This document shows positions 1-28,355 of a stretch of 51,175 nucleotides of DNA, piece by piece. The stretch's first letter is position 1. Each line of letters begins with the position of its first letter. The notes below the pieces were generated by a model. That model had not been told where the DNA came from and did no database searches. It was given only the letters and a program-made list of their open reading frames with translations. The position numbers and the translations under genes are program-made. The stretch spans positions 1-51,175 of the IMG/VR virus record IMGVR_UViG_3300020463_000032, one strand, 5' to 3'. Origin of the DNA: a virus. Taxonomy: Duplodnaviria; Caudoviricetes.

Positions 1-1
1 G

Positions 2-31
2 TAGACATATAATCAACTGTGGGTATATATT
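2..31 (+). promoter_or_regulatory. Putative sigma70-type promoter for the first early transcript
   Basis: TAGACA (2-7) followed by TATATA (24-29, 16-bp spacer) or TATATT (26-31, 18-bp spacer); lies at the window edge. Confidence 0.45.
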
Positions 32-40
32 TGACATAAG

Positions 41-433
41 GCCCCCTTTCGGGGGGCAGGGACTGAGAGAGTTAGTTCCAAGCGGTCGGGCTACCAAGCG
101 GACCCAGTAAAGGCGAGATCAGGACAGACGCTGCACCTCTTAGCAAAGGGCGAGTTTAGCACCTCGGAAATTCGATCTTCAAATCTCAGATACTTACGGC
201 CAGTAATCGCACCGTGAGTCTTGAAACAAGTGGGTCTTAACCCCACCTGAATGCAACCATCTTAGCCAGTCCAATAGGCGTCACTTAGTGAGAGCAGTGG
301 ACTGGGTAGCTTAGCCCCTGACTATCGGTCAGTTTAGGAAGCCTAGATCACGTGCTATCCGAAAGATAATGAACCGCTCCGCGGCTTCTATTCAGGTTCA
401 ATGAATTGGCAACGATTCATAATGGAATGCTAC
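41..433 (+). ncRNA. Candidate large structured non-coding RNA, family unassigned
   Basis: No ORF of 60 aa or more; more GC-rich than other intergenic DNA; helices at 41-57, 63-68/184-189, 192-199/212-219, 220-230, 230-246, 266-273/298-305, 318-332, 334-346, 356-368, 370-375/395-400 and 401-420 (GCAA loop). Confidence 0.65.
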
Positions 434-457
434 TTTTTAACCTTAACTTATTAACCT

Positions 458-517
458 TTCGAAACCGCTTAGGCGGTCTATACGAATTGATCACCGTATA
501 CTGACGAGATAGATCAC
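458..517 (+). ncRNA. Type II hammerhead ribozyme 1, predicted cleavage after C478
   Basis: C-GAAA, stem III CCGC-ttag-GCGG, GUC triplet, stem I TATACG/CGTATA, core CTGACGA-G; loop I TGATC is complementary to 3' tail GATCA (pseudoknot). Confidence 0.93.
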
Positions 518-553
518 TAACTTAACTTAAATCTTTTATTACAAAATAAAATT

Positions 554-898
554 ATGCCATCTACAGACAAACCAACATATTCTAACTTCAGAAAACATTC
601 CAATCTTCGCTGCTTTGTTGACCGTGACAGATTCCAAAGAGCCATATTATCAGGGGACATCGGAGGGGGTGCAATCCTTGTATCACCTCGGACTGCAACA
701 AGTGTGGGTACGTTCGAGGCCATCTACATCGGCTTTAACAGCCACAATGGAATGAACTATGTCGCTTGGAGGAGAGGCAATGAACCTCTTGAGAAATTTC
801 TTAAAAGAGCAGATAAGTTGGATGCCTATTACGACAGAGTCACCGCTTTCAGAAGCGAAGATTCGGAAGAGGCTGAAGGGTGGGCACCAAAGTTATAA
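554..898 (+). CDS. Hypothetical early protein, 114 aa, between hammerheads 1 and 2
   Basis: ORF follows the shared AT-rich leader; its TAA abuts ribozyme 2. Confidence 0.85.
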   Translation: MPSTDKPTYSNFRKHSNLRCFVDRDRFQRAILSGDIGGGAILVSPRTATSVGTFEAIYIGFNSHNGMNYVAWRRGNEPLEKFLKRADKLDAYYDRVTAFRSEDSEEAEGWAPKL

Positions 899-960
899 TT
901 CGAAACCGCTGCAAAGCGGTCCGTATGAATTGATCATCATACGCTGATGAGATAGATCAC
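899..960 (+). ncRNA. Type II hammerhead ribozyme 2, predicted cleavage after C921
   Basis: GAAA, stem III CCGCT-gcaa-AGCGG, GUC, stem I CGTATGA/TCATACG, CTGATGA-G, GATCA tail; compensatory changes relative to copy 1. Confidence 0.95.
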
Positions 961-985
961 CTTAACTTAAATCTTTTATTACAAA

Positions 986-1381
986 ATGAAATTAAATCTT
1001 AGACAAAATGGAATCAAATCTAAATGGATTCGCAGAGGCTTTGTGAAAATTGAAAACGATAAAATCAAATGGCTACATGAGCCAGAGGCAATGGCTTGCC
1101 GCTGGACTATTAATAAAGTATCTAAACATTTGACCTGCAACAAAGGCATAACTGATCAATTAAAAGATCGAGTAAAGATCAAAAATCAAATAGATGCAGT
1201 TAAACAAAAGGGCAGAATTAACACCCTATTTATGGGGACCGACTGCGATAATACGACATGGGAGCATCAGGTAAATATACCTGCTAACGTGATGAGCTTC
1301 ATTAAACTTTGGAATGATGAATGCGATAATTGCGAAGGCCAATTTCATGGAGGCCGTCCAGTACCTAATTGGGTGTCTTAA
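986..1381 (+). CDS. Hypothetical early protein, 131 aa, between hammerheads 2 and 3
   Basis: ORF follows the shared leader; TAA one base before ribozyme 3; DCD and CDNCEG motifs. Confidence 0.85.
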   Translation: MKLNLRQNGIKSKWIRRGFVKIENDKIKWLHEPEAMACRWTINKVSKHLTCNKGITDQLKDRVKIKNQIDAVKQKGRINTLFMGTDCDNTTWEHQVNIPANVMSFIKLWNDECDNCEGQFHGGRPVPNWVS

Positions 1382-1382
1382 A

Positions 1383-1442
1383 TTCGAAACCGCTTAGGCG
1401 GTCCGTATGAATTGATCATCATACGCTGATGAGATAGATCAC
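1383..1442 (+). ncRNA. Type II hammerhead ribozyme 3, predicted cleavage after C1403
   Basis: GAAA-CCGC-ttag-GCGG-TC, stem I CGTATGA/TCATACG, CTGATGA-G, GATCA tail. Confidence 0.95.
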
Positions 1443-1473
1443 TAACTTAACTTACTTAACTTATTATCCAATT

Positions 1474-1656
1474 ATGCCTAAATTATTAGCCCTTATTGAA
1501 AACGGTTTTATCACTGAATCTGAGGTAAAACTTGCAGCTACAAATTACGATTTGGACCCGATTATTAATGCCTTCGATGAGGCGGGCCAGTTCATTGAAA
1601 TTACTACTCTTGAAAGTGAATTGTTAAATCACTTCGAAGGTATCAGATACGACTAA
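1474..1656 (+). CDS. Small acidic hypothetical protein, 60 aa
   Basis: ORF downstream of ribozyme 3 with TAACTTAAC leader. Confidence 0.75.
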   Translation: MPKLLALIENGFITESEVKLAATNYDLDPIINAFDEAGQFIEITTLESELLNHFEGIRYD

Positions 1657-1698
1657 TTTCTTTTTAACAAAACTAAATAAACTTAACTAACTAAAATC

Positions 1699-2916
1699 AT
1701 GATTAATAGATTCGCTAACACAGCAAAAATTACGATAGCCCAATTAAAGTTGGGCTTTAAACTATGGACCGAAAATCTAAATTTCGTTACCATTGCAGGG
1801 CCATCAGGTGATGGAAAAACTGAGATTGCAGCCACCGAACTGCCTGAAGTTTTAGGCATTGAGGATTCTCGCCTACATACTGAAGGCGGAGATGTTTATC
1901 TCCTTAACTACACTGACAAAGGCCCTCAAGAAGCTGCTGGTTATGGCAAGGTGAATGCTGATGGAATCCATATGGATTTCACAGCACCTCGCGATTTACC
2001 TACCGTCCACCGCGTTAAGAATACAGGCAACGGTGATATCAACCGCCCGATCCTTTTAATACTTGATGAGTTCAGTCTATACGATTCAACAGTTCAGGGA
2101 ATGATCAGGCCCTTGCAAGCTCGGAAGGGCAAGCCAATGTTCGGGACCCATGAGCTCGCACCAAACATCAGAATCCTGCTCACTGGAAACCGTATTGAAG
2201 ACGGTTCACAGAATGCAACGGACCCTGATCAGGCCATCTTAACACGTGGAAAGTTTTTCATTATCGATAACAACTTCACTGACTGGTACAAGTGGGCCGT
2301 CACTAAAGATTGGGCAGTTCAAAATGATATACTCAATTTCCTCACATATGTGAAATCTTTAGGCGATACTATCCGCACTGAGGATGGCGAAACACGCCTG
2401 AAGATTGATGAGATTTTCAAGCCCACTATCCCAATGTCAGGCACTGTAAATCCTACAGCATGTCCGAGACAATGGGAGAATGTTTGCCGAGAGTTCAAGT
2501 CTATTCAGGATATGAGCATAACTGATTCTGAAAAAGAGGACCTCTTGAGAATGTCTTTAAATGGTGCGGTGGGAATCAATGTCACTGAAGATATCATGAG
2601 CTTTATCGAGTCCATAAAGGATGCGATTCCTAAATATCAGGATGTCCGCAATGACCTTAAATCAATGGCAGACTTTAGCGGTATTGATGCAATGGCGGTG
2701 CTTTCCATAGCAGCCCAACGCGCTATCAAAGAAGCTAAAAAAATTAGTGGATCTGATAAGCCTGAGCAGATCAAAAAAGATACAGGCCATGAAACGCAGC
2801 GCGGTTCTTTTGACTGGTTCACTGACAAGTTCATCGGACCTGCCACCAATAAAGAGATGGCCCGCTTCGCACTTGAGAATGTTCAGAGGTTCGTCCCTCT
2901 AAAAGATAACTCCTAA
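1699..2916 (+). CDS. AAA+ ATPase, MoxR/dynein-related type
   Basis: Walker A GPSGDGKT, Walker B ILLILDE, sensor-1 LTGNR, CPRQWE motif; vWA gene nearby. Confidence 0.85.
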   Translation: MINRFANTAKITIAQLKLGFKLWTENLNFVTIAGPSGDGKTEIAATELPEVLGIEDSRLHTEGGDVYLLNYTDKGPQEAAGYGKVNADGIHMDFTAPRDLPTVHRVKNTGNGDINRPILLILDEFSLYDSTVQGMIRPLQARKGKPMFGTHELAPNIRILLTGNRIEDGSQNATDPDQAILTRGKFFIIDNNFTDWYKWAVTKDWAVQNDILNFLTYVKSLGDTIRTEDGETRLKIDEIFKPTIPMSGTVNPTACPRQWENVCREFKSIQDMSITDSEKEDLLRMSLNGAVGINVTEDIMSFIESIKDAIPKYQDVRNDLKSMADFSGIDAMAVLSIAAQRAIKEAKKISGSDKPEQIKKDTGHETQRGSFDWFTDKFIGPATNKEMARFALENVQRFVPLKDNS

Positions 2917-2969
2917 TATTAACCTTAACTTATTAACTTTATTAAAAAATAAATTAACTAACTGTAATC

Positions 2970-3914
2970 ATGAAAATGAAATCATTCGACATTGAAAAGA
3001 TAAGCAACGGACTTAGCTCCATTGTAAACGTATATGTGAAGTTCACTTCACCTAATCTCAGCAAGAAAAACAGCAAGCTAATTGCTGAACTTGCTGATAA
3101 ATATAACACTGATGAGTCCAGTCTATTGGCCTCTGAAAAGTTATTCCTGAGACGAGATACGATCTTCGGAAAGCTCTCATCGAGCATCGTAAAATTTAAA
3201 ACTGCGGTGGCTGCTGATGAAAATAACAAGGGCCTTAAACTGCCTACGAATCCAATGACTGGGGCTATCGAAGTTCCTGCTGATCAGCTTATGAGAAAGC
3301 TAGAGATTCGTGACAAGTTCATCGGGCCTGAAGGTGAGTTCACCATCCTGAAGGAACGCCTTCGCGGTATATTCTCAGAGCTGAAAGCTGCCTCTAAACA
3401 GAGGCTCGGTAAGCTCGGTGAAGAGCATGACTGGGACTCATTCACTGAAGCAAAATTCGTGGATAAGTATACCCTGAAGATGCACTGGGTCCAGTCCACC
3501 TACGCGCTAAAAACTAGCCGTGACTTAGCCGTAGCTCAAGAGGTTGCTGACATCGCGACTGCGAATCAGCATGATGCAATGGTGAATCTTGCTAAAGGAT
3601 CTATCAGTAACTTGCTAAGTTCAATGACTGATGAGCTAAAGAAATCCCTATCGCAAGTCCGTGAGGGTGATCGATTCGGGCAGCTTGCATTCGATAGGTT
3701 CGGACGCGCATACAATGCCCTGAACTCTAAGAGTAAATCCTTTTTTAATAAAGGGGATATAACTGAGCTCGATGACTTGCTCGATAAGTTCAATGGCCTT
3801 GGCAAAATCAAGCGCGATAACATTGAAACAAAGACGCAGCGTAGTAAGACCGCTGACCGTATTGAGTCCGTATTGAGTGAGCATGATGACCTCATGGAGC
3901 AGCTCGGACTTTAA
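2970..3914 (+). CDS. Helical hypothetical protein of the AAA-vWA module (possibly DUF3150-like)
   Basis: 314-aa ORF between AAA and vWA genes; family guess rests on size and context only. Confidence 0.6.
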   Translation: MKMKSFDIEKISNGLSSIVNVYVKFTSPNLSKKNSKLIAELADKYNTDESSLLASEKLFLRRDTIFGKLSSSIVKFKTAVAADENNKGLKLPTNPMTGAIEVPADQLMRKLEIRDKFIGPEGEFTILKERLRGIFSELKAASKQRLGKLGEEHDWDSFTEAKFVDKYTLKMHWVQSTYALKTSRDLAVAQEVADIATANQHDAMVNLAKGSISNLLSSMTDELKKSLSQVREGDRFGQLAFDRFGRAYNALNSKSKSFFNKGDITELDDLLDKFNGLGKIKRDNIETKTQRSKTADRIESVLSEHDDLMEQLGL

Positions 3915-3927
3915 CCCTGAACCCTGA

Positions 3928-3955
3928 TCACTGCCCCCTAAACAGGGGGCGGTGA
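3928..3955. other. GC-rich hairpin without a following U tract
   Basis: TCACTGCCCCCT-aaac-AGGGGGCGGTGA followed by AAAAG; could be a stabilising hairpin or a weak terminator. Confidence 0.6.
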
Positions 3956-3962
3956 AAAAGAT

Positions 3963-3990
3963 TTGACATCAATAAACAATTAACTATTAT
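3963..3990 (+). promoter_or_regulatory. sigma70-type promoter of the vWA gene
   Basis: TTGACA-16 bp-TATTAT. Confidence 0.7.
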
Positions 3991-3995
3991 CCTAT

Positions 3996-4028
3996 CCTAA
4001 CTTAACTAACTTAACTAACTTAACTAAC
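3996..4028 (+). promoter_or_regulatory. Tandem CTAACTTAA leader repeat directly before ATG
   Basis: cctaacttaactaacttaactaacttaactaac-ATG; related motifs precede most early genes. Confidence 0.8.
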
Positions 4029-5597
4029 ATGGAAATTTTAGACATAAACCCTAAGAGCACCTGCCCTATGGTGAGGGCTCGTTATCAAGTCCTGAAGATT
4101 GTTTCAGGCGTACTAAAAACTATCGCGGGGACCGTTCAATTTGTACGCGATAATACTGTAGATCTTGCAGCGACTGATGGTAATTTCATATTCGTATCAG
4201 ACCGATGCTTCGTGATGGCTAAGAATGGTAAGTTCACCATCAATGGCAAGCGCGTCAGTGCTATCGCAGCATGGCGGACTGTAATTTTACATGAGTACCT
4301 CCACATTTTATTGGGACACTGCACATACAGAATGAGAGATCTTAATGCGAACCCTGCCACCAAAAACATAGCGATGGACCACGCGGTCAATCTGATGGCT
4401 CAGGAAATCGAGCGCACTGCTGACTGCTCAGTGCTCCGTGAACTAGGAATCATGGGCAACATCTTCCCAATCTTTGACGGCCTCTTTTGTGATGCTAAGT
4501 ACACTGATCAGGATGCTGAGACAATCCTTAATGACCTTATTAAAAAAGGAGATAAGGGTACTGACATCAATGAGCCTGAAGGTATCACGGACGGGGACAC
4601 CAATCCTGATGGTGATCCAACGGACGGTGACGGAGATGGTGATACTGATGCGGACGCTGATGGCGATGACCCAACGGACGGAGGTAGTGATGGTGAGGCA
4701 GATGGAGATGGAGATGGAGACGCAGATGGAGATGGAGATGGAGACGCAGATGGAGACGCAGATGGCGAAGGCGGTTCAGATGGAGACGCAGATGGCGAAG
4801 GCGGTTCAGATGGAGATGCAGATGGCGAAGGTTCAAGTGACTCTGGATCTGGAGCGGGTGGTCAGGTCAGTGACAATGTAAGATATCCTGATCTCGAAGA
4901 GGGCGAGACCCCTGAAGAGGCCGACGCGAAGGCCCGCAAGAAAATCAAAGAGGCCGTGAGGATTCAGGAGATGAGCAAAAAAGCGGGACTCGAAGAGGTT
5001 AAAGACGGACTGACTCGTAAAGTATCTGAAGCATTCACAGCTAAAGCTAAAGTACCGTGGCAAAAAGTTCTTACCAACTGGCTCAAGCGTACTCTCAGCG
5101 GTGGATGGGACAAGCCTCAGAACCTCCCAGTCTTAGGCGCGACTGATTTATTCAGCGCGGGCCGTGGATCTAAGAAGCTACCTGAGATCGCGTACATCAT
5201 CGACACTAGCTACTCAATGTCTGATGATGTAGTGAATGACGGACTCGATCAGCTTGAGAATTTGATGAGGCAGTACAAGCCTAAGAAGACTCACGTTATA
5301 TGCTGCTCAACTGAGGTCGAGCTCAACAAGTCCAGATCTTACTCCTCAAATCAGAGGATCGATAGATCAATCATCACGGGCGGTGGTGGAACTAGATTTG
5401 TCCCCGCCTTCGAATATGTAAAACGCTACCATCCGAATGTCGGTGCGGTGGTGTACATCACGGACGGTGAATGCGATCAGCGTAATCAAATACCTCAGCA
5501 CTTGTTACCTGCCAAGTTGCTATGGGTTGTTTACGGTGGCATGAAACCCGAACGCTTTAAGTTAGGTAAAGTAGTAGAAGCTCCACCAGTGAGCTAG
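4029..5597 (+). CDS. DUF2201-like putative metallopeptidase plus vWA domain protein
   Basis: HEYLH zincin motif, NIAMDHAVN, acidic Asp/Gly linker, MIDAS DTSYS, GGGGT and YITDG motifs. Confidence 0.88.
   Translation: MEILDINPKSTCPMVRARYQVLKIVSGVLKTIAGTVQFVRDNTVDLAATDGNFIFVSDRCFVMAKNGKFTINGKRVSAIAAWRTVILHEYLHILLGHCTYRMRDLNANPATKNIAMDHAVNLMAQEIERTADCSVLRELGIMGNIFPIFDGLFCDAKYTDQDAETILNDLIKKGDKGTDINEPEGITDGDTNPDGDPTDGDGDGDTDADADGDDPTDGGSDGEADGDGDGDADGDGDGDADGDADGEGGSDGDADGEGGSDGDADGEGSSDSGSGAGGQVSDNVRYPDLEEGETPEEADAKARKKIKEAVRIQEMSKKAGLEEVKDGLTRKVSEAFTAKAKVPWQKVLTNWLKRTLSGGWDKPQNLPVLGATDLFSAGRGSKKLPEIAYIIDTSYSMSDDVVNDGLDQLENLMRQYKPKKTHVICCSTEVELNKSRSYSSNQRIDRSIITGGGGTRFVPAFEYVKRYHPNVGAVVYITDGECDQRNQIPQHLLPAKLLWVVYGGMKPERFKLGKVVEAPPVS
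4698..4835 (+). repeat. In-frame tandem repeats encoding the Asp-Gly linker
   Basis: 24-nt GCAGATGGAGATGGAGATGGAGAC x2 and a 30-nt GDADGEGGSD unit about x3. Confidence 0.9.
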
Positions 5598-5603
5598 AAA
5601 TAA

Positions 5604-5642
5604 TAGCCCCCTCTTCATGGAGGGGAGGGGGCTAAATCTTTT
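5604..5642 (+). terminator. Probable intrinsic terminator
   Basis: TAGCCCCCTC/GAGGGGGCTA stem followed by AATCTTTT (imperfect U tract). Confidence 0.55.
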
Positions 5643-5664
5643 AACAAAAAATAAAATTAGATAA

Positions 5665-5982
5665 ATGAAAAATCATTACGTCATAACAACTCAATATCTT
5701 GAGAACTATGGAGCCCACTCTGGTAGTGGAAAGTTTTCTGATGGGCAAGCTCATTGGAAGTTCAAGGGCGGTGAGCAATACCTCATCTCCACAGAGTCAC
5801 AGCAGTATGCGGATGCGGTCGCATTCTTGACAGCTTATTTACATGAGAGTAATAACAGCGTCCACTCAAAAGAGATCGTGGTCTCATGGGATCATGAGCC
5901 ATTGGTAAACCCATCTAACGCAAAGGATGAAGGATATATAGCAATAGATATCGAGGAATATTTTAAACAAACTCAAAAATAA
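5665..5982 (+). CDS. Hypothetical phage protein, 105 aa
   Basis: TQYLENYGAH and WKFKGG motifs recall a conserved small phage protein family. Confidence 0.8.
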   Translation: MKNHYVITTQYLENYGAHSGSGKFSDGQAHWKFKGGEQYLISTESQQYADAVAFLTAYLHESNNSVHSKEIVVSWDHEPLVNPSNAKDEGYIAIDIEEYFKQTQK

Positions 5983-6243
5983 ATGAAGCAAGAAATAGTA
6001 AAAGAAGTTCGCCTCGATTACTTAGACCATGCGTATGATCTAATCAAATGGAGGGTTGATGATCTACATGGAGCGGATCACACAGGAGTAACAGAAGAAA
6101 GAGAGAATTTAGAAAAGACTCTAACTCTTTTGAATGACCTCGCTGTAGGGAACAAGTGGATAATACTGTCTAAAAAAATTACAAAGATCAACGAAATAAA
6201 AAACAAAGAAATCTCGATATGCTTACAATATTCTTCATCTTAA
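5983..6243 (+). CDS. Hypothetical protein
   Basis: Starts immediately after the previous stop. Confidence 0.7.
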   Translation: MKQEIVKEVRLDYLDHAYDLIKWRVDDLHGADHTGVTEERENLEKTLTLLNDLAVGNKWIILSKKITKINEIKNKEISICLQYSSS

Positions 6244-6503
6244 TCTGGATCTTATTAACGATCCTCTTCTTGCGTTTCTTCTACGTATCGAACCCACCTC
6301 AAAAGGTTAACACCATTTACGTGGGGTTAGATCACAACGAATGGAATGTCATACTTAAATGCATTGACCAGTGCATAAAGTCTGGTCCTCGATCTGATGC
6401 AGACTACGAAGGGTATCGTCCTCAAGAAGAGGAGGAACGCATAGCCGTGGGCCGTGAGATCGCGTACCAAGTTTGTAACCATATTGAATCTGAACTTAAA
6501 TAA
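6219..6503 (+). CDS. Hypothetical protein with N-terminal transmembrane helix
   Basis: Hydrophobic N-terminus LTIFFILIWILLTILFL. Confidence 0.7.
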   Translation: MLTIFFILIWILLTILFLRFFYVSNPPQKVNTIYVGLDHNEWNVILKCIDQCIKSGPRSDADYEGYRPQEEEERIAVGREIAYQVCNHIESELK

Positions 6504-6508
6504 TAACT

Positions 6509-6580
6509 ATGATAATTAACAAAGATAATCCCCATGATGACGAACCGATAGACATCTACGGTTCAGGCGATGAAGATTAA
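6509..6580 (+). CDS. Possible 23-aa acidic peptide
   Basis: MIINKDNPHDDEPIDIYGSGDED fills the gap between ORFs; below the ORF-track threshold. Confidence 0.4.
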   Translation: MIINKDNPHDDEPIDIYGSGDED

Positions 6581-6602
6581 ATAACTTAATTAATTTAAAA
6601 AT

Positions 6603-6899
6603 ATGCAGCCGATAACAATACCAACAATTGACTTTAAATATCATCAGGGATCTTATGCGCCTGACTGGTTTGATTCATGCGATCCTTATCATTATGCTAT
6701 TACAAGTGGCACTAGTCCCTTTAATGAGTATTACGGATTTAATAATGATGAAGACGTTCACAAACTGGCTCATTCATTTACAAGTCAAACTTTTATAGAT
6801 GACTTTGTGTTCCTCGAAGACAAAAACGCATGGCACTATTCCGAAGATATGACGTTAGCCGATGAAAGGGCAATGCTAGAAGCTGAATCAAGATTCTAA
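6603..6899 (+). CDS. Hypothetical acidic/aromatic protein
   Basis: ORF with TAACTTAA leader. Confidence 0.75.
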   Translation: MQPITIPTIDFKYHQGSYAPDWFDSCDPYHYAITSGTSPFNEYYGFNNDEDVHKLAHSFTSQTFIDDFVFLEDKNAWHYSEDMTLADERAMLEAESRF

Positions 6900-6935
6900 A
6901 AATATATCCAATCAAAATCTGAACTTAAATAATTT

Positions 6936-7166
6936 ATGAAAAAAATAATTAACGACTTCATTGATAGGACTCTGTTCATATCTCTTTGCTCATTACTTTT
7001 TATCCTTTTCCTGCTGATCGCTGCAATAGCGGGAGGCTACGTAGCGGACGCGAGGATCGCTGTAATGAGGATCAGTGGATTCGAGATGTTCCTTTGTCTC
7101 GTGATCCTTCCCGCAATCACTGCATCTATCTGGATGCTTGTCGATAAACTTAACGAGAAACATTAA
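6936..7166 (+). CDS. Small membrane protein with two TM helices
   Basis: Two long hydrophobic segments. Confidence 0.75.
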   Translation: MKKIINDFIDRTLFISLCSLLFILFLLIAAIAGGYVADARIAVMRISGFEMFLCLVILPAITASIWMLVDKLNEKH

Positions 7167-7183
7167 CTTAACTAAACTTAATC

Positions 7184-8557
7184 ATGAATAAATCATTATC
7201 TAGAAACGGGATGCATTTCAATCCCGACCAACAGCCTTATCCTTTTGACGAAGGATTTAATCCCGTAGGAATAACGGATTCTAAACTGAAAAGAAAATAT
7301 CTCGATGCTATATCTAGGGCATTTGTCCGCGCTGTTTACCGCTCAAACGGGTATGGGAATGCTAATAGCTACTGTAGAGAATTTAAAAAAGTAATTCATT
7401 CGAAGCTTTATAATTCTTTTTTTCCTAAAAGATTTAAGAACGTACCTGCTTTTTGTGACCCTCGTTTGTTTGGGGTGGCTAACTTATTTACTTATCTTGA
7501 GCACGGTACTAATACAACAGCAGCTAAAGAGGACGATGGTAAGGCAACGGCAGCATGGAGGGATCTTCATATAAACCTGTTGGGTTTTAACTACCCTGTT
7601 TATTTTCTTGATGAGACTACAGAACAAATGATTATCGATTCTAAGTTAGATCCTACTTTGACCTTAGCGGACATCGAGTTTGTATTGCCGAGCTTCTTAA
7701 TTTGTTTACCAAAAAAAGATTCATGTTCCTTATCGGCTCTACGAAAAGGAAAAGGCTCTGATTACATAGCTACTATTGGGGTAGCTAGATCTTTCGAGAT
7801 GTACAATTCAATCACTGATACTTACACTTCAAACCTCGATCAAGAATGGGAATACATGGGAGGATGTAACTCTCATAACATGAATAAGATGATAGTTGAA
7901 AGCGGGGATGGACCTTGGAGGGAGATAGGTGATGCAATGCTAGAACACTGGGCTAACATGGATATCAATGATGAGTCTGGAAGAGTAAATACATCTACCT
8001 TTCAAGATCCTGAAGTGACAAATAAAATGTGGCGATCAGGTCAGTATAAAATACAGCCCGTCCTTAACGTGGGTTGCGTTAGTGGAACTACGCTCAAACT
8101 TCCCGCCCGTTTCCGCATGGATGATCCAGTACCCGTTACTGAATTGATAGAATTAAATAGGGCTCTTGCCGATGAACTTCCCGACAAGGCGGAATTGATG
8201 ACATCAAACTGGACGGGCCCTCAGATGGCTGATATGCTTGAGTTTACCCTCAAAATTATGGCTTTCATGGCTGCTAAACCTGAAGAGGTCAGCACTGTAG
8301 CCAAACAAACTCAACCCGCTAAAGTTCGTAGAGGTTACACTCTTCGTGAATCTGAATGGAGTCCTAACATCATCGGCAAAAGGTACGGAGCTACTCTTCG
8401 TAGACAAGGGTACACTTCTGATGACGGGGACAAAGATAAGAACAGACCGCACTGGAGGAGAGCTCACCAAAGAAGACAGAGGTATGGTAAACATTCTGCC
8501 AAAGAGAAATTAATATGGGTCGATGCCGTCTTCGTGAATGACCCTGAAAAAGATTAA
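7184..8557 (+). CDS. Hypothetical protein with C-terminal PHWRRxH motif
   Basis: 457 aa; RPHWRRAHQRRQRYG...IWVDAVFVN tail of a kind seen in many phage proteins. Confidence 0.85.
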   Translation: MNKSLSRNGMHFNPDQQPYPFDEGFNPVGITDSKLKRKYLDAISRAFVRAVYRSNGYGNANSYCREFKKVIHSKLYNSFFPKRFKNVPAFCDPRLFGVANLFTYLEHGTNTTAAKEDDGKATAAWRDLHINLLGFNYPVYFLDETTEQMIIDSKLDPTLTLADIEFVLPSFLICLPKKDSCSLSALRKGKGSDYIATIGVARSFEMYNSITDTYTSNLDQEWEYMGGCNSHNMNKMIVESGDGPWREIGDAMLEHWANMDINDESGRVNTSTFQDPEVTNKMWRSGQYKIQPVLNVGCVSGTTLKLPARFRMDDPVPVTELIELNRALADELPDKAELMTSNWTGPQMADMLEFTLKIMAFMAAKPEEVSTVAKQTQPAKVRRGYTLRESEWSPNIIGKRYGATLRRQGYTSDDGDKDKNRPHWRRAHQRRQRYGKHSAKEKLIWVDAVFVNDPEKD

Positions 8558-8564
8558 TAGAATT

Positions 8565-8635
8565 GGGCATTGCGTCGGAGATTTGGTACTCTGGTTATTT
8601 TCATACGCCCGTCAGGTAAACGCATAAAACCTGAC
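8565..8635 (+). ncRNA. Candidate pseudoknotted RNA element
   Basis: GGGC/GCCC encloses CGGAG/CTCTG; then hairpin GTCAGGT/ACCTGAC whose loop ACGCA is complementary to TGCGT (8571-8575). Confidence 0.5.
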
Positions 8636-8644
8636 ACTAAATTT

Positions 8645-8672
8645 AACCCTGAACCCTGAACCCTGAACCCTG
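8645..8672. repeat. (AACCCTG)4 tandem heptamer
   Basis: Four perfect copies; two more at 3913-3926. Confidence 0.95.
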
Positions 8673-8716
8673 ATTCATTTTACAAAAAATAAATTAACTA
8701 ATAACTAAAACTAAAC

Positions 8717-8980
8717 ATGGAAACTATAGCTATAGATAAAACTAAAACTGAAACTAAAACTGAAACTAATAAGTATCTACTTCAATACACCATCACGGTG
8801 CAAATTCCAGTGGAGGCAGAGGATGAGGAAGCAGCTTACGATGAAGCTCATGATACAGATCCTCTCGACTATATTAACGACGTAAGGAATATTGATATTG
8901 AACTCGAAAGAGCGGTCGAGCTTACCGAAGACGAGTGGGCTTGGTGGGCTAGAAAGAGAAAGAAGAGCAGTGCCAAGTAA
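8717..8980 (+). CDS. Hypothetical protein
   Basis: ITVQIPVEAEDEEAAY motif typical of small phage proteins; TAAC-type leader. Confidence 0.8.
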   Translation: METIAIDKTKTETKTETNKYLLQYTITVQIPVEAEDEEAAYDEAHDTDPLDYINDVRNIDIELERAVELTEDEWAWWARKRKKSSAK

Positions 8981-9242
8981 TCACATATCAAACGAACCTT
9001 ATCACGAATGGCTACGTGATAAGGTGAAACGTGATAACGATAAAACCAAACGCGAAACCTTAGCCAAACAAATAAAAGAACTAAATATGGAATCTCAAGT
9101 AGATGTAGTAGAAGAAGAAGTCTCTCAGTTGAGAGAAGCACGTAACGAGTTAGCAGCAATGTTAGCTCACGTATTGGGGTCCAAAGAAAACTTGAAGAAG
9201 TTTTTGGAGGACTGGAATAAAAAGAAATTGACTAGTCAATAA
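8970..9242 (+). CDS. Coiled-coil hypothetical protein
   Basis: In frame with track ORF 8892..9242; GTG at 8970 gives a short overlap and is the likelier start. Confidence 0.7.
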   Translation: MPSNHISNEPYHEWLRDKVKRDNDKTKRETLAKQIKELNMESQVDVVEEEVSQLREARNELAAMLAHVLGSKENLKKFLEDWNKKKLTSQ

Positions 9243-9297
9243 TACATTATATATTAATTATAACTTAACCCTAAATTCATTTATTAAAAAAGTAATT

Positions 9298-9759
9298 ATG
9301 ACACCCTTAACTAAAGCAGTACATCGGGTGGTAGTGATCGAAGATCAGGAGTATATAGCTTCTCTCGTCCCTGCCACGGAAAAGCAGCCCGCAGCCTTCA
9401 CACTTCGTAAGAAGAAACATCGATCCTTGTCATCTTGGATTGCTATGGATGATTCACTTGTGGATCATGCTGATGATGAAGAAGCTGAAGCTGAGTACGA
9501 ACCCATAACACAAGCGGAGAAATCCGCGCAACACGTAGCTAAACGATTAGCCGTTCAGTTGGCTCTTAATAATGCTAGAGAGAATGATCTAATCCATCCG
9601 AAGGACTTGGAGATGTGGTCCAAATATTCGTACCCAAAATTCTTGGAAGCGTGGGCTCGCTATAAAACAGCGTTAGCTTTTCACAAAGATCCTGCGCTTA
9701 TCAAGATTGTTTGGGGAAAGAATAACGAGATCGTAGTCTATTGTCCTGAGTTTGTATAA
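9298..9759 (+). CDS. Hypothetical protein
   Basis: 153-aa ORF with TAACTTAACC leader at 9261. Confidence 0.8.
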   Translation: MTPLTKAVHRVVVIEDQEYIASLVPATEKQPAAFTLRKKKHRSLSSWIAMDDSLVDHADDEEAEAEYEPITQAEKSAQHVAKRLAVQLALNNARENDLIHPKDLEMWSKYSYPKFLEAWARYKTALAFHKDPALIKIVWGKNNEIVVYCPEFV

Positions 9760-9961
9760 GATGAGGATTATTAGACAAGTGTTTCCGCAAGGACATCCGA
9801 TCATTGTGGATGCACAACTGGATGATGACAACGGGGTCGTACAAGACTCCGTTGTTATTTATCCAATACTCCCTGACGGAATAATAGGGGAACCTATCTT
9901 CAGTAAGGAGGACCCTGAAACAAAAATATTAGACGAAATTATTAACGACCTGTTAGAATAA
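9752..9961 (+). CDS. Hypothetical protein
   Basis: Coupled ORF; ATG at 9761 is an alternative start. Confidence 0.7.
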   Translation: MYKMRIIRQVFPQGHPIIVDAQLDDDNGVVQDSVVIYPILPDGIIGEPIFSKEDPETKILDEIINDLLE

Positions 9962-9967
9962 AAATAA

Positions 9968-10294
9968 ATGCAGTTAACTTACAAAATATCACCGCAAGCT
10001 ATCGCGAAAGCGATCAGTAAAGTCTCTGGATTTTCAGTTTATGAACTGAGGAACGAAGGACATTCACATACACTCGCCCAGTGGAGACACTTGGGAATGT
10101 ACTTGGCCCGTGAATCGGGAATGACGTACGTTGAAGCGGGTGAAGTATTCAATCGCCACTTCTCAACAGCACTGACATCACATAGGAAAGTCAAGAAATC
10201 CTTGGATGATCCTCAGATAGCAGATGCTTTAGGACAAATTAAAAACTTTTTGGATAAAGAAAATAAAGACGATGGAAATCAAGAGATTCTATAA
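9968..10294 (+). CDS. Stand-alone DnaA domain IV-like HTH protein
   Basis: RHLGMYLARE-SGMTYVEAGEVF-NRHFSTALTSHRKV parallels the DnaA C-terminal signature RQIAMYLxRE...IGxxFGGRDHTTV. Confidence 0.8.
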   Translation: MQLTYKISPQAIAKAISKVSGFSVYELRNEGHSHTLAQWRHLGMYLARESGMTYVEAGEVFNRHFSTALTSHRKVKKSLDDPQIADALGQIKNFLDKENKDDGNQEIL

Positions 10295-10478
10295 GACAGA
10301 CAGAGGCCCGTACAGCAGCATCTTTTTAATGCACACTGTAGACGCAATGCCTCAGTACAAAGTATATGCAGTGTCTCCTGAAGACCCTACCGAAGTTATC
10401 TACGAAGGTAAGGACAGGAAAGAAGCAAACAATAGTTTTGAGAAACTAGTTTCGAAGTACACTTTACAAGCTCACTAA
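10272..10478 (+). CDS. Hypothetical protein
   Basis: Last + strand ORF of the early block. Confidence 0.7.
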   Translation: MEIKRFYKTDRGPYSSIFLMHTVDAMPQYKVYAVSPEDPTEVIYEGKDRKEANNSFEKLVSKYTLQAH

Positions 10479-10480
10479 AC

Positions 10481-10508
10481 TTGACGAATATATTTTGCTT
10501 GGTATACT
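10481..10508 (+). promoter_or_regulatory. Strong sigma70-type promoter with no downstream ORF
   Basis: TTGACG-16 bp-TATACT with extended -10 TG at 10500-10501. Confidence 0.75.
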
Positions 10509-10513
10509 TAACT

Positions 10514-10602
10514 TACTTGGCGTAGTCAATGTTCCATTGGTTAAGTTAGGTTAAGTTAAGGTCCCCCTCCTTCTACATCACGTAGAGGGAGGGGGTTTTT
10601 TT
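10514..10602 (+). ncRNA. Candidate ~90-nt small RNA antisense to early-gene leaders
   Basis: Between promoter and terminator; contains TTCCATTGGTTAAGTTAGGTTAAGTTAAGG, the reverse complement of the TAACTTAAC leader motif plus ATGGAA. Confidence 0.7.
10563..10602 (+). terminator. Intrinsic terminator
   Basis: 14-bp stem CCCCCTCCTTCTAC/GTAGAGGGAGGGGG followed by T7. Confidence 0.9.
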
Positions 10603-10606
10603 GTGT

Positions 10607-13600
10607 TTACGGATCTACCGATAGGAACCTTGGGTACTTATTCAACTCAGCTTGGAAGTCTCGGAGTCTTTGGATATGGGTCTCTCCTTTTCTAGCCATA
10701 CTTTCGATCAATGGCATAGGCAATGACGGTCTATCCATGACTCCTTTGGCGAGTAGCAACTGGACTCGTCTCTTACTCATCCCCCTTCGGAGACTGATGT
10801 TATAGATCTCCTCTCTAGGTAAGCCTTGCCTTTCAAAAGATCTGTACAACTGAATGAGGTGAGCGTTGACTCTTCGTCTTCCCTCTATTTCTTTTTTTGC
10901 TAAAGAAGTTATATCCGCTTTGGTCATTACCCTGTCAGTTAACATTTTATATTTGTTTGAGTTGATCCTGTCGAACTCACCTTTCCTCTTCTCTACAAAT
11001 TGAGATAACCTGACATCAAACTCAATCGGATAAGTCGTTGCGGGTTTAAACTGTCCGATGATATTTGATATAATTTCAGGAGCCTTAGTGATGTCAAACC
11101 CATCTTTGAATATCGCTCTGTCCTCTAACAGTTTGGTAAGAGTTGGAGGAGTGTAAGCTTCATTCAATACATACTTAATAGACTTCGTAAATTTATCATG
11201 GAGCAGATCATTCTCTTCGTAGATAGGCTCTTGTTTCTTTGGGTCGAAGTTTGTTGTGCTGTTTAAGAAAGCCCTCATGAATATTTGCTGATCAAGAAAT
11301 TCACCTAGCGTACCTTTCACTAAACTCTCTACCGTTTTGGAAGTATTGCCGTGAACGAGATGCTCCATCGCCCTTAGTGAAGGGTCAGTTAACATCGAGT
11401 ATGGGTTAATGAAAGTTAAAGAGAAGTTCCTTCTCTCCTTAGTAAGAGGATTTGTATAGTACACGAGTGATTGATTCTGCATATACGGTGGCAACGTATC
11501 ACGAAGAGCTTCGTCATCATCGTAGAATACACCTTGTAGAAGTCTCGTAGTGATGGGAAGTATGACTGAAGATACTCCAGTAACAAACCCAATACCTGCT
11601 AGTCTTCTTCGTCCACGTTTTCTAATAACAGGGTTACTGTCTTTAGATTCCTTCATGGCTAAGTTCCACGTATTGAAATATGTTCTGATAACCTCACCTT
11701 TGAATCGAAGGAAAGGCGCGAACATAACTCCGAAGGTATGCCCCTGAAGTCCAGTGATAATAGGAGGAGCTTGAGAATATGTTTGAGAAGTCATGACAAC
11801 TTTCTCGGCTGCTAATCTCTTTAGTTCATAATCAGTTTTGGCAGCATAAAAATCTTGCTTGCCGTTCTTGCGAGAAGACTCTCTTGCATCGATGAGATAA
11901 CTAAGTTCGTGCTCGAACAAAGCTATCTTGTAGAAAGCATCAACGATAGCCGAAAGTTCTTTAGCCTTACCCCATGTTTTCTCATTAGCTTTCTCAGCTA
12001 ACTCTTTGCCTTTACGAGAAATGCTCTTGCCCTCTTCGTTCTCTAGCCTTGAAAGATTTTTTTCAAAATCATTTAAGACTGTTTCTGGAGAGGCCTGTCC
12101 ACTGAGGAGCTCTTCAATTAGCTTGGGCCTAATCTCGTTTCCGATAACATCAAGAGCTATCAGTTCTGTATAGTATGCATTAGACTTTTCTTGACGTATT
12201 CCTCTTCGATTTAATTCGGTCATCAAACTGTCTGTCATCTTCCCGAATCCAACGAAACCATTCGCGGGACCGAAGTAGAAAGCGTTTGATATTACGTTTC
12301 TTACATAGAAACCAATGTTACCTAAAGTCTTAGCTCCCAGAGATAAGCCTGTTATTCTAGCCATCAACTTAAAGGAACCACTCGCTATTTTTTCTGCGTC
12401 GTTCGCAGTCTCTTGAGTAGGCGGACTGAGTACACTCATCAAGCCATCAACCATTTCAGCGGGAGCAAAGAGTTGAACGTTCTTTGGTTCACCATCGACC
12501 TCGACCTCAAAGTTTCTGAATGGGTCATAAGCTTCTGTTCCTCCTGCTCTGATTTGTTTGTACCTACTTCCACCATACTCATCTATATTTTCTAGTCTCT
12601 TTTTCTTGAGTTCATCCTTTGTAAGTATCCACTCGTTTCCTTTTCTGCGTCCAACCTCTAATAAGTTTTTCATGAACGCTTGGTTCGATGCCATCATACC
12701 AACGCTGAGATAAGTACGTAGAAGATTCTTGAACCCTGCACCCTCGTCAGTTTCCTCTCCAAGCAGAGCCCTGATTGATTCATCAATATCTCTTTTCTTT
12801 TTCAACTGATTTATCAGAGGACTAGCAAAGGATTCAACAGCTTCGGGTCCTACTATCAAGTTATTTGCGTCCTTATCTTTATAACTATGAAGGAAAGAAA
12901 GCATCATTGACCTACCTAAGTCTTTGTTGTCGCTAAGTTCTTTCTTAGCTAGTGCGGTAGCTTCGGATTCTTCTTTACCATCTTTTATGAAGGCTTTAAT
13001 ACGCGCTTGTTTGTAGGTTTCTTCAAAATACTTAGCAGCATTATTCCTCACGGTTTCGAAGTTAGGATCTTTGGTAACTTTATCCAACCACCCTGCTTCA
13101 TTGAACATCTTATATGATCGGGTTATGTATATCCCTAAGTTGCTATCTATGGTAGCACTTAGATCTACGTCCACATTGTAGAGTTCTTTAAGTTTAATTG
13201 ATAGAGTGTCAACGATATCACGTATAGCTTTGAGCTCATTAACAAAGTCAGGAGATACCTTTTCCAGTTGAGTTAAGGCAGCGTCCTTTTTCTTTCTAAT
13301 GATTTCTTTTTGAACGTCTTCTTGTTTGCGGATGTCGTTCTTGTATTTGTTTGTAACATCCTCAAGAAGTGTTTTCTTTTCTTCTTCGGTGATCTCTTTA
13401 CGTTTAGCTCTTGCAATTATGTCCGCTTTTCTGGACTTGTGTTGCAGCTTCATTGAATCTTTGATATCATCAGGTATCGAGACGACTTCCGAAGACCCCG
13501 TAGCTTCAGATATCAATTCGTATGGTATACTAAATCCTTTATCAATAAAGTCTTTATCAAGTACCTTCCTTAACTCAATCGATCTTAGGTTAACATCATT

Positions 13601-16600
13601 CTGAACAGCACGGTTGAACGCTTCCCGTTGTTCGAACATACGCCTGACTCGGATATCAAGAGACCCAGTCATGGCGACTTTAAATTTACGCCACCAAGAA
13701 TCCTTACGTTTATCTGAATCATACACACCGTCCTCGTAAACAGGAGCTTCTAACATTTTCTCCAAGCTATCAACAGTGATACCTCCCGCAGAGTAAGTGT
13801 ACCCTGATATTGTTTTATCAGTAGCACCGAGCTCAGAGTACAAGAACGAATCCATTGTCGGATCAAACCTATCAGTCAAAGGAATTATATTCCCATCCTC
13901 ATCGTAAGTTACAGGATCGGATAACTTTATTTGTTCGGGTGTGAGTACAACTGTTATGGTAGCATCTTCCCCACTGTTTGTTACAAAATCAGCAGTCAAA
14001 GCATCTATACCAGTAACTTCTTTGAGAGCTTGGTGATAATATTTAGCGTATATACCACTACCGTTCATCTCTCCAAGCTGTTCGGCTATTGTTTCATTTT
14101 GAACAGGATCAGAAATCATTTCAACAGCGGCCTCTATGCTCCCAAAGTTGGCTACAAAAGTATCATTGATACTTGCTTCAGGATCTTCTTTTAGCATATC
14201 TTGAAACTCCAACTCGTTTACTCTTTCAAGTACGGGTCTCAGTTCCTCTGCCGAAAGAGGGGCGGAGTCATGAGGGCGTGGGTTGTTTACTTTCAGATAC
14301 GCAGAAAGAATTCTTCCTCTAAACTTACCTACGCGAGTATATCCCTCCGCAACTGTTTGTGATTTTGTGAAATAAAAACCTGTTCCATATTGAAAACCTG
14401 TACCGAATCCTATCTTACTGTAAGAGAATGCATCGAAATCAGCGGGGGTTCCGTGGAACAGAGGACCAACAGTGTACCCTGTAGCTTCCGCTGCTCGCTT
14501 CACTAACTGCTGAAGTACTTCTTTATTTCCTTCAGGATCTTGAGCCAACTCCATGTACCTATCGTTGGTAGCACCGAGTTCAGAGTATAAGATAGAATCT
14601 TTAGTTGTATCGAAGCGTTGTGATAAAGGTATCACTTCACCCGTGCTATCATAAGTTACAGGGTCTGCTGACTTTATGTTCTCTGGTTTATTGAGTATAA
14701 CATACTGCTCACCTGTAATATCCTTTTCACCGCTTACCCATTCGTCTTTACCAACAACAATACTATCACGCCCTTTAGCCTGTAGTCCTTCAAAGAACTC
14801 AGATTGATTATTCGGTTTAAATCTTTCCTCTGCAAAGGTCTTCCAAAAGTCAGGGTAGACTTCAGGGTTTTTCATTTTTAGATAAGCCTTAACTACTTTA
14901 GGCTCCTTCTTTTTGTACTCTTCAAACAAACCATCCTCATTCTCTTCGCCCATGAATGGGTAATCATCAATGAGATCTGCCTTCTGCTCTTCACTCCAGT
15001 TGTGATAACCAACGGCTGCTCTTTCGTTGTCCGCGAAAAAGAAAGCTCCCATCTCCCCTAAAGTTTTATCGGCTTGGAATATATCTATCTCCTCTGGACC
15101 CGCGTGATATCTAGGCTTGGTAATAAATCCTGCTTCTTTTGCAGCTTTGTCTACCATAGCCTGTAGTTCTTTTTGATTTCTTTGAGGGTTCTCAGCTAAC
15201 TTTAAGTACTCTCTATCAGTAGCACCGAGTTCAGAGTACAGTAGCTCCTCAACCTGTTCTTCTGTTAATGTCTCAGACTCTAAAGATTCACCCGCTGCTA
15301 CCCTTAACTCAGGCTGTCTGTCTGTGAGGTTACCACTAAGAATATCTTTTTTGTCGAAGGCAATTTTTTGAACAACATTAACATCGTTACCTGCATAATA
15401 TTTCAACACATAATCTTTTCGATTAGAGATAAAGAAACCATTAGTCATCTTTATAGGGCCTTCGAGGGGAGTGGACTGTCTAGAATCTGCACCAGAAACA
15501 GCTCTGCCATCTACAAGCCGAGATACTCTATATCCAACAAGCCTACCATCTTCTAACGTCTCGAACTGATTACCACCGAGTTCACTCCGTAAGGTTGTCA
15601 TATCTATAAGATCCTCACGAGTTGTTTCTGCTATCCTAATTTGAGAAGGATCAAATACGACCCAAGTACCAGAGCCCTCGTAATGAATCGCATCGTACCC
15701 ACTTAATTGTGAAACTAATTTAGTAACTCCTTCTTCTCCTACAGCCTCTATGTCTTCTTTAATTTTTTGAAACTTAGGGTTTACGTTAGCTAACTGGTTT
15801 ACCACCATACCAAACATTTGTGCTTGTGCTAAATACATTACAGGAGTCTCGTTAACCCTAAGTAAGTTAGCTTCTTCGTTTGTTAACTTATATTTAGCCC
15901 TTAAACCTTTAACTAACTCGTTGAAGAAAACTTCATTGTTACCTATGCCTTCCATAGCCCTTCTCGGAGTTGTAAAAACTTTATTAGCCTTCAGAAAGAC
16001 ATCATACATTTGTCCTTCTTTACCTTTGTCAATCTCAGCTAACTTAGAATCTTCAGTTTTAAAATAAAAACCAAAGCCTCCTCCGATATTCTTCCTATTG
16101 TAATCTCCAACAGACTTAACACCTTCGCTTTCAGCACCGTTAAATACTCTGACAAGATCACCTTCAACTAAATGATTGTTTCGAATTGCCTCGGCCTCGA
16201 TCAGCTTTTTAGTTTGTGGGACACTATAGTCAGCATCTTTCAATGACCTATTGAAATGTTCTTTAGATCCTACGACAACTGAGTTAGATGGATTAGGGTA
16301 CGCAACTGAATCTCTTGGGTTGCCCGTTAAGTTACCTAAAGTGATGTGGTATATCCTTTGCTTATCAGGAGAAGGTTCTCCTAGTATATACTTTTCTACA
16401 AAATTATTTAAGACTTCTTGTTCGACAACTCTTCGTACTAATGACTGCCTAAGCGTACCGTCTGGTTGTATTTGTGATACAATTTCGGGAGCGTGGAACG
16501 TGAGGTTAGGAAGTACTGCTGTAGTACTCTCCCCTAAACGACGGAAAGCTTCGCCTAATATATCAGTTTTGCCTTGCGCTTCTCTGCCTTGAACAAAAGC

Positions 16601-28250: not shown

Positions 28251-28287
28251 CACGCTAAACCCTACATATATTATTCTTCTATATACC

Positions 28288-28327
28288 TAATTAAGTTTAT
28301 TCTATTAATTTAGAATAAACTTAATTA
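28288..28327. repeat. Perfect 17-bp AT-rich inverted repeat
   Basis: TAATTAAGTTTATTCTA-ttaatt-TAGAATAAACTTAATTA. Confidence 0.95.
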
Positions 28328-28355
28328 CAGTTCTGAGAAACTTTTCAGTTTACTT

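Follow-up and report, generated by a model that had tools for sequence, protein, structure and literature searches.

The window, i.e., the whole stretch of 51,175 nucleotides that was analyzed, is one linear virus record estimated to be 85% complete, and its gene products include the terminase large subunit, a DNA polymerase, a helicase, a primase and an endolysin. Contigs from marine metagenome runs align to its first 1.8 kb. In four of the 20 runs that contain this stretch, the RNA described below was covered by contigs of X1, X2 and X4 and not of X3; no RNA dataset is listed among these runs. Cultured phage records returned only five matches to the window, each of 20-27 bases. The closest relatives of the ATPase and the polymerase are distant (24-30% identity), and for this reason no named phage family or host can be given.

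The first 10.5 kb form a plus-strand block of mostly small genes, which appears to be the early region. It begins with a non-coding stretch and three hammerheads of type II, which start near 459, 899 and 1383:

2..31, plus strand: sigma70-type promoter-like site (TAGACA-18-TATATT), score 10/12, -35 hexamer invariant in 7/7 homologues
459..516, plus strand: type II hammerhead 1 with a loop-I/3'-tail pseudoknot, an intact core and a weak Rfam match
899..960, plus strand: hammerhead 2, heading a 131-aa ORF
1383..1443, plus strand: hammerhead 3, heading a 60-aa ORF

After the hammerhead cassettes comes a gene trio (window 1699-5597, plus strand) encoding an ATPase, a 314-aa protein and a metallopeptidase-vWA protein (DUF2201).

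The region was compared in seven aligned copies (alignment A3), namely the window and six homologues, one of which (L145) is a near-copy of the window. Using the neighboring ATPase as bait, two loci were obtained from six candidate stretches, and a metagenome pattern scan returned 21 loci, four of them real, including L145. Two other pattern scans gave no loci, a further one gave eight of which six were unrelated, another gave three with none real, and protein-led scans added nothing new. Pairwise identity among the distinct copies is 84-94% for the RNA and 87-96% for the ATPase gene. In each of the seven copies the RNA is preceded by the promoter-like site and followed immediately by a hammerhead; the genes behind hammerhead 1 vary by strain, while the RNA stays in place.

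The sequence-only reading of this DNA had described about 430 nt without an ORF, a description that is borne out. Positions 41-478 hold no credible ORF: among frames of at least 50 aa they are overlapped by just one, of 51 aa, on the minus strand at 91-246. When the window is compared with five diverged homologues, 25 indels are seen, and 21 of these have lengths not divisible by three and would shift a frame. The plausible promoter noted upstream also stands, through conservation of its hexamers and not through its scan score. A scan of the window found 16 promoter-like sites against 23.8 expected by chance, so that a match alone is no evidence; the -35 hexamer and four of the six bases of the -10 hexamer are invariant in 7/7 homologues, compared with 8 of the 18 spacer bases. 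Transcription would start near base 38, judging from the position of this site.

The RNA is not truncated by the window edge, as had been suspected it might be. L145, which is 99.9% identical to the window over 1-2697, runs 2.3 kb further upstream, and in L145, L153 and L157 about 1 kb of non-coding DNA is followed by a divergent 151-aa ORF and then by a conserved 738-aa gene, a putative portal. Because these three loci continue upstream past the promoter-like site, the RNA is whole.

Hammerhead 1 matches the Rfam family Hammerhead_II (RF02276) at 457-518 with 26.5 bits (E 0.012), below the cut-off of 37 bits. Its type II features are all present, i.e., the GAAA and CUGANGA core, the NUH site GUC at 476-478, stems I-III and the pseudoknot between loop I and the 3' tail, which covaries in L001, L002 and L141. 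Cleavage is predicted after C478 and would leave the stem III hairpin (465-476) at the 3' end of the RNA. Clustered type II phage hammerheads are described as cleaving in vitro and in vivo (PMC3088659), and by analogy the intact core suggests that hammerhead 1 cleaves itself. Hammerhead-headed cassettes occur at window 459-1656 and in L001, L002, L141, L153 and L157. Each phage with a complete region has two to three of these hammerheads, and the small ORFs between them differ in each strain, as if the ribozymes doubled as recombination sites for the swapping of early genes.

Secondary structure and covariation

Sixteen helices were drawn by hand from alignment A3 and then counted on the seven sequences; L228 in the following list is a more distant homologue.

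41..57, plus strand: 5' hairpin P0; fold kept despite sequence change in L002 and L141, no counterpart seen in L228
59..79, plus strand: hairpin P1 of 8 bp with an invariant GAGAG loop; one two-sided and two one-sided changes, pairing in 100% of cells, not seen in L228
81..86, plus strand: 5' strand of long-range helix X, partner 373-378; invariant in 7/7, three possible registers in L228
87..101, plus strand: hairpin P3; 90:99 switches from G-C to C-G, retained in L228
116..178, plus strand: variable branched domain with UAGCA-loop hairpins 136-150 and 151-166; two haplotypes, reduced in L228
186..224, plus strand: extended hairpin P6 (186-190:219-224, 193-199:212-218); loop starts with CCAGU and ends with GCA
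230..246, plus strand: hairpin P7, with 245-246 common to helix Y; two pairs with two-sided change
245..253, plus strand: 5' strand of long-range helix Y, partner 389-397; kept in 7/7, crosses X
266..305, plus strand: hairpin domain P8 with an internal loop; two-sided change in 3/8 outer pairs
309..342, plus strand: hairpin domain P9, inner stem 318-332 with a 3-nt loop; L228 retains this stem and the AUC loop
356..368, plus strand: hairpin P10 with a CGAAA loop; 358:366 is U-A, C-G or G-C, absent in L228
373..397, plus strand: 3' strands of X (373-378) and Y (389-397), with a 6-nt palindrome (379-384) in between
401..420, plus strand: GCAA-capped hairpin P11; in the covariation count, GCAA hairpin also in L228
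421..458, plus strand: A/U-rich single-stranded tail whose length varies; 437-458 nearly duplicates the leader that precedes the gene at 2970

The expectation of at least ten helices, one of them GCAA-capped, was thereby exceeded, with the GCAA hairpin placed at 401-420. Across the seven close copies, 97.1% of 647 cells are paired. Two-sided change affects 16 of the 93 pairs (which include the doubtful GAGA/UCUC pairs 67-70:184-187) as against 8.5 ± 1.9 in shuffles, none of 500 shuffles reaches this count and slid controls give 0-3, although the score may be inflated, since the structure comes from the same alignment and the copies share ancestry and are mosaic. For further pair types the value was below that of the shuffles (28 versus 33.2). 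In addition, the contig of run X2 carries 23 substitutions, of which 11 affect paired bases without breaking any pair, a check that is only partly independent given that the list was seen while the structure was drawn. Gathering homologues for a covariation test, as had been advised, yielded six close ones that keep the helices by compensatory change.

The 116-178 domain is poorly aligned, with 88-89% of cells paired, and its hairpin 136-150 is absent in L002 and L141. P6 accommodates a 20-nt insert in L141, and P0 likely protects the 5' end of the RNA. The loop pseudoknot between GAGA and UCUC (67-70:184-187) is doubtful because 186-187 are shared with P6 and P1 is unseen in L228. The idea of an anticodon-like loop at 235-241 was given up, as 235:240 covaries. 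The palindrome at 379-384, which reads CCGCGG in 4/7 copies and UCGCGA in 3/7 and is not kept in L228, is a possible dimer contact.

Adding helix X to the local fold changes its energy from -85.1 to -96.8 kcal/mol, and adding helix Y to -93.6 kcal/mol. Since the two helices cross, they would together create a pseudoknotted core. Being invariant in 7/7, X offers no covariation in the close copies, and as it is also ambiguous in L228, the pseudoknot is less sure than helix Y itself. The conserved unpaired bases may shape a compact fold.

Folding energy separates the RNA from shuffled sequence by a narrow margin. The plus strand of 41-420 folds slightly better (z -1.72), and 5 of 100 shuffles fold equally well, which comes close to the outcome, no better folding than shuffles, that the earlier reading had named as refuting; the minus strand is similar (z -1.56). 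It is thus covariation and not energy that supports the structure. Of 66 pairs, nine include a G-U and one an A-C, an excess that favors an RNA made from the plus strand, albeit in a count biased by the selection of the pairs on that strand. Comparative analysis of the copies establishes that the stretch is non-coding, that its helices are kept, and that it has a core of some 290-340 nt and a fixed place behind the promoter-like site, and we consider it highly probable that the stretch encodes a real structured RNA.

A distant homologue and the slot it occupies

The 738-aa gene, used as bait, gave 48 loci of the wider family (57-77% identity). A covariance model of the 3' half (R1), built from six close copies without L228, produced a single match over these 48 loci (655,813 bases), namely L228 (25.8 bits, E 1.5e-4). 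The L228 RNA lies 1.6 kb upstream of the 738-aa gene on the divergent strand, i.e., in the same slot and on the same strand as the window RNA, with a promoter-like site (read by eye) ahead and the first ORF behind. A model of the 5' half (R2) matches the adjoining L228 stretch at window-like spacing, weakly (8.7 bits, E 0.35, fifth of 14). Furthermore, a 5-bp GCAA hairpin follows helix Y of L228 outside R1, with a spacing that differs by at most 1 nt from that in the window, against a background of 679 in 189,680 positions (0.36%).

When this one distant sequence was anchored by hand, 22 of 56 pairs were the same, two showed one-sided and 28 two-sided change, and four were broken. All nine pairs of helix Y are kept, four by two-sided change, and its end G-U is retained; the 12 pairs of P6 include seven two-sided changes and one broken pair. 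Unpaired linkers common to the window and L228 are AAAUC before P6, the P6 loop ends and the AUC loop. All three possible registers of X in L228 cross Y. The L228 core folds with a z of -0.17.

No type II hammerhead was found in the L228 record. The idea of a ribozyme-made 3' end therefore fits the seven close copies, in which an intact hammerhead lies downstream, but not L228, and on this comparison the hammerhead is not part of the RNA class. In its place, the 3' side of L228 has two stems of 15-16 bp. RNase III sites occur in the T7 early leader, and by analogy these stems might be such sites. A motif pattern picked up just two type II hammerhead-like sites across the 48 family loci, both on the minus strand of L263 (at 2235 and 1384).

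Further copies are scarce. A model with L228 added found none in 40 slot regions, the next best score being 11.3 bits, so that this RNA is present in 1/40 slot regions of the wider family; the whole-record search with R1 is insensitive, since it missed L228 itself. Among 124 loci with similar type II hammerheads, no RNA copy was detected beyond the two contigs already known, with R1 applied to all 124 loci and R2 to 80 of them. A model match in L033 was dropped, as it falls inside an apparent ORF.

L227 and L233, the nearest relatives of L228, have flanking DNA in common with it, yet another long non-coding stretch occupies their slot, which fits an accessory gene. The slots of L247, L249, L256 and L271 hold still other stretches that fold well or are hairpin-rich. 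ORF-poor stretches were located, on the minus strand, in L227 (5440-4870), L233 (5240-4510), L247 (5390-4865) and L249 (5510-4720), and also in the slot regions of L256, L265 and L271. Several are hairpin-rich with UUCG loops, and z is -2.6 to -5.3 for L247, L256, L265 and L271. These long stretches are candidates for further new RNAs; an Rfam scan of nine family loci and 20 of the 40 slot regions gave nothing meaningful. In a rule-based leader census 5 of the 40 slot regions passed, four of them with z at or below -2.6, but the census missed L228 and is therefore too strict to measure frequency. In L227, L228 and L233, a 15-nt inverted repeat recurs many times, including in the P8 loop and the downstream stem of the L228 RNA.

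Relation to known RNAs and possible role

No Rfam family was matched by bases 41-420, and the whole window gave no match at the gathering score. Even at E up to 10, the window, L141 and L278 showed no match to GOLLD, ROOL, OLE, MISL or RAGATH, so the RNA, which the first reading could not assign by eye, is not GOLLD, ROOL, MISL or a RAGATH motif. A tmRNA would be recognized by a tRNA-like acceptor and T arm and by a tag frame; it was ruled out by the missing Rfam match and by ARAGORN, which found no tRNA or tmRNA genes in the window (an 85%-complete contig).

GOLLD and ROOL are large, ornate phage and prophage RNAs described as having no known function (PMC5737381; PMC12286853). Going by these descriptions, the present RNA is likewise large, multi-junction, pseudoknotted, phage-encoded and non-coding, possibly with a palindromic bridge. 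ROOL is given as about 580 nt and GOLLD as often above 800 nt, whereas the core here is about 290-340 nt, and both often adjoin tRNA genes, which are not neighbors here. Unlike them, the RNA of the window comes right after the earliest promoter-like site and has a hammerhead at its end.

Several short motifs appeared by eye in the order of RNase P RNA when set against the Rfam consensus, and the resemblance was therefore tested with 52 fetched RNase P RNAs. RF00010 and RF00011 found nothing at the RNA stretch, the profile of the 52 RNAs gave 0/6 nhmmer matches and z of -2.1 to 0 versus shuffles, and R1 matched the RNase P RNA in none of 15 RNase P loci. The type A RNA (RF00010) is similar in size and also has a long-range helix followed by a hairpin, but the look-alike segments pair here with other partners. 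RNase P RNA was accordingly rejected, the profile being no better than shuffles and the catalytic P4 motifs (conserved regions I/V) and the P1 closing helix being absent in A3.

In group I introns, the order P3/P7/P9 corresponds to two crossing helices followed by a GNRA hairpin, and the guanosine site needs a bulge in P7. The same order of two crossing helices and a GNRA hairpin is seen here. A group I intron was nevertheless discarded, with no Rfam match, an unbulged 9-bp helix Y in both the window and L228, no fitting P4-P6 and no exons. A T-loop module of the tRNA-elbow type was also rejected: 186-190 pairs with 219-224 in 7/7 copies (with one A-C in L141), and three of these five pairs are changed on both sides in L228, whereas tRNA-elbow binders such as RNase P and T-boxes are described as having two unpaired pentanucleotide T-loops flanking a stem (PMC4919913).

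Candidate structured RNAs have been reported from the same IMG/VR collection on the same type of evidence, with lengths of 29-151 nt (PMC10690425). Six supplementary files of that paper gave no match to three motifs and two sample numbers, and a fragment of the RNA could still be among its candidates. No description of this RNA was met in the literature, four motif strings leading to one unrelated paper. By comparison with Rfam and the literature, it is a new RNA class within a known kind. Large phage RNAs without known function and early transcripts split by hammerheads are each already known; a large RNA as the first hammerhead-released piece was not met in either source. The resemblance to the clustered type II hammerheads (RF02276; PMC3088659) lies in the three pseudoknotted ribozymes that flank single early genes varying between strains. 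The pieces released in that account are mRNAs, whereas here the first piece would be a large conserved non-coding RNA.

As regards function, we favor a folded RNA gene that heads the early operon, is transcribed first, is freed at 478 and acts in trans as a scaffold or decoy for a host protein or RNA, with a probability of roughly 0.45. Host RNA polymerase would start near base 38 and make this RNA first; the hammerhead would cut after 478 and release some 440 nt of RNA that starts and finishes in a hairpin; and the released RNA would act early in infection as a stable scaffold or decoy, its target presumably being a host defense or gene-expression factor. Release from the mRNA, the varying gene that follows, the patchy distribution and the replacement in the slot all favor action in trans over an essential cis signal. 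Phage RNAs that counter host defense have been described (10.64898/2026.06.01.729453). More tentatively, and with doubt outweighing belief, one may picture a new pseudoknotted, ribozyme-sized RNA that is the very first product of the phage, frees itself and disarms or reprograms the host without a protein, expressed from an exchangeable RNA-cargo slot in which family members swap large folded RNAs as others swap anti-defense genes.

The RNA might instead act in cis and co-transcriptionally, as an antiterminator or RNA polymerase modifier that aids early read-through and perhaps genome entry. HK022 put RNA is a cis-acting antiterminator and polymerase-modifying RNA of this kind. The position directly behind the first promoter-like site in 8/8 copies suits such an element, as do the long folded leaders of other family members in the slot. 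Nevertheless, the hammerhead would sever the RNA from the nascent transcript, the nearest plus-strand terminator-like sites lie at 5128 and beyond, additional promoter-like sites are available at 3963, 9228 and 10481, and put RNAs are far smaller, all of which makes a cis role unlikely.

Catalysis by an RNA of a new class seems less probable still. In its favor are the ribozyme-like size, the order of the pseudoknot and the unpaired bases conserved between the window and L228, but no intron or ribozyme family of Rfam except the hammerhead was matched, helix Y lacks the bulge of the group I guanosine site, and flanking exons are missing because the RNA begins at the promoter.

Slightly lower again we place an RNA-only oligomer or cage like GOLLD, ROOL and OLE, joined via the palindromic loop 379-384. 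The alternation of this loop between two palindromes recalls the palindrome switching described as a mark of intermolecular bridges in OLE and GOLLD (PMC12286853). Against this, the switch is one evolutionary event that a single closing pair explains too, L228 lacks the palindrome and the window has no tRNA genes. Such a cage is compatible with action in trans.

Ranked just behind, and hardly less credible, is a structured leader that is a by-product of processing and steadies or times the first mRNA. Its weak folding energy is in line with this, and so is the view that phage hammerheads split long transcripts into single-gene mRNAs (PMC3088659). Yet the hammerhead itself would form the 5' end of the mRNA, so that the upstream piece could not shield it, and phages with only 76% identity in their marker protein still have the 9-bp long-range helix and the unpaired linkers in common. 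Finally, a signal acting as DNA close to the end of the genome, such as an injection stop, an origin or a packaging signal, with no RNA involved is very improbable: the stretch adjoins some 1 kb of non-coding DNA in which motifs are repeated, and its minus strand folds about equally, but the one-strand G-U wobbles, the GCAA and UUCG loops, the promoter-like site upstream and the ribozyme downstream all speak against it.

Large structured RNA classes of bacteria and phages are few and mostly without known function. For the RNA described here, the promoter-like site and the ribozyme define the two ends, and a structure derived by comparison and a distant homologue are available; its size suits cryo-EM and simple expression tests, and its place suggests action ahead of all phage protein synthesis. 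Should the slot be general for RNA cargo, then L227/L233, L247, L249, L256 and L271 constitute a short list of new RNAs.

Other elements of the record

A 5107-aa polyvalent protein (window 10607-25930, minus strand) contains three ART-PolyVal (ADP-ribosyltransferase) and two DUF7178 stretches and probably enters the cell with the genome. An A/T-rich palindromic stretch of about 90 nt lies behind the terminase gene (window 28263-28351) and on the reverse strand of L145 (1359-1446), the two being 79% identical. The L145 copy sits upstream of the divergent 151-aa ORF, and the element is possibly a late promoter or operator. Tandem ACCCTGA repeats, which are possible protein-binding sites, were observed between genes at window 3915-3950 and 8645-8673 and in the upstream non-coding region of L153 (1859-1884).

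Finally, a candidate small RNA of about 85 nt is flanked at window 10481-10602 (plus strand) by a promoter-like site that is strong (TTGACG-16-TATACT, with TG) and by a terminator with a U tail. Its central part could pair with the early-gene leaders that carry TTAACT repeats, and also with the large RNA's 3' tail, being complementary to both; the best four duplex sites within 1-10500 are 3986, 7151, 436 and 1431, the seed having been picked for complementarity. Two relatives conserve the candidate at 96%, a hairpin loop there being longer by an insert of 5 nt, and could be a repressor of early translation.
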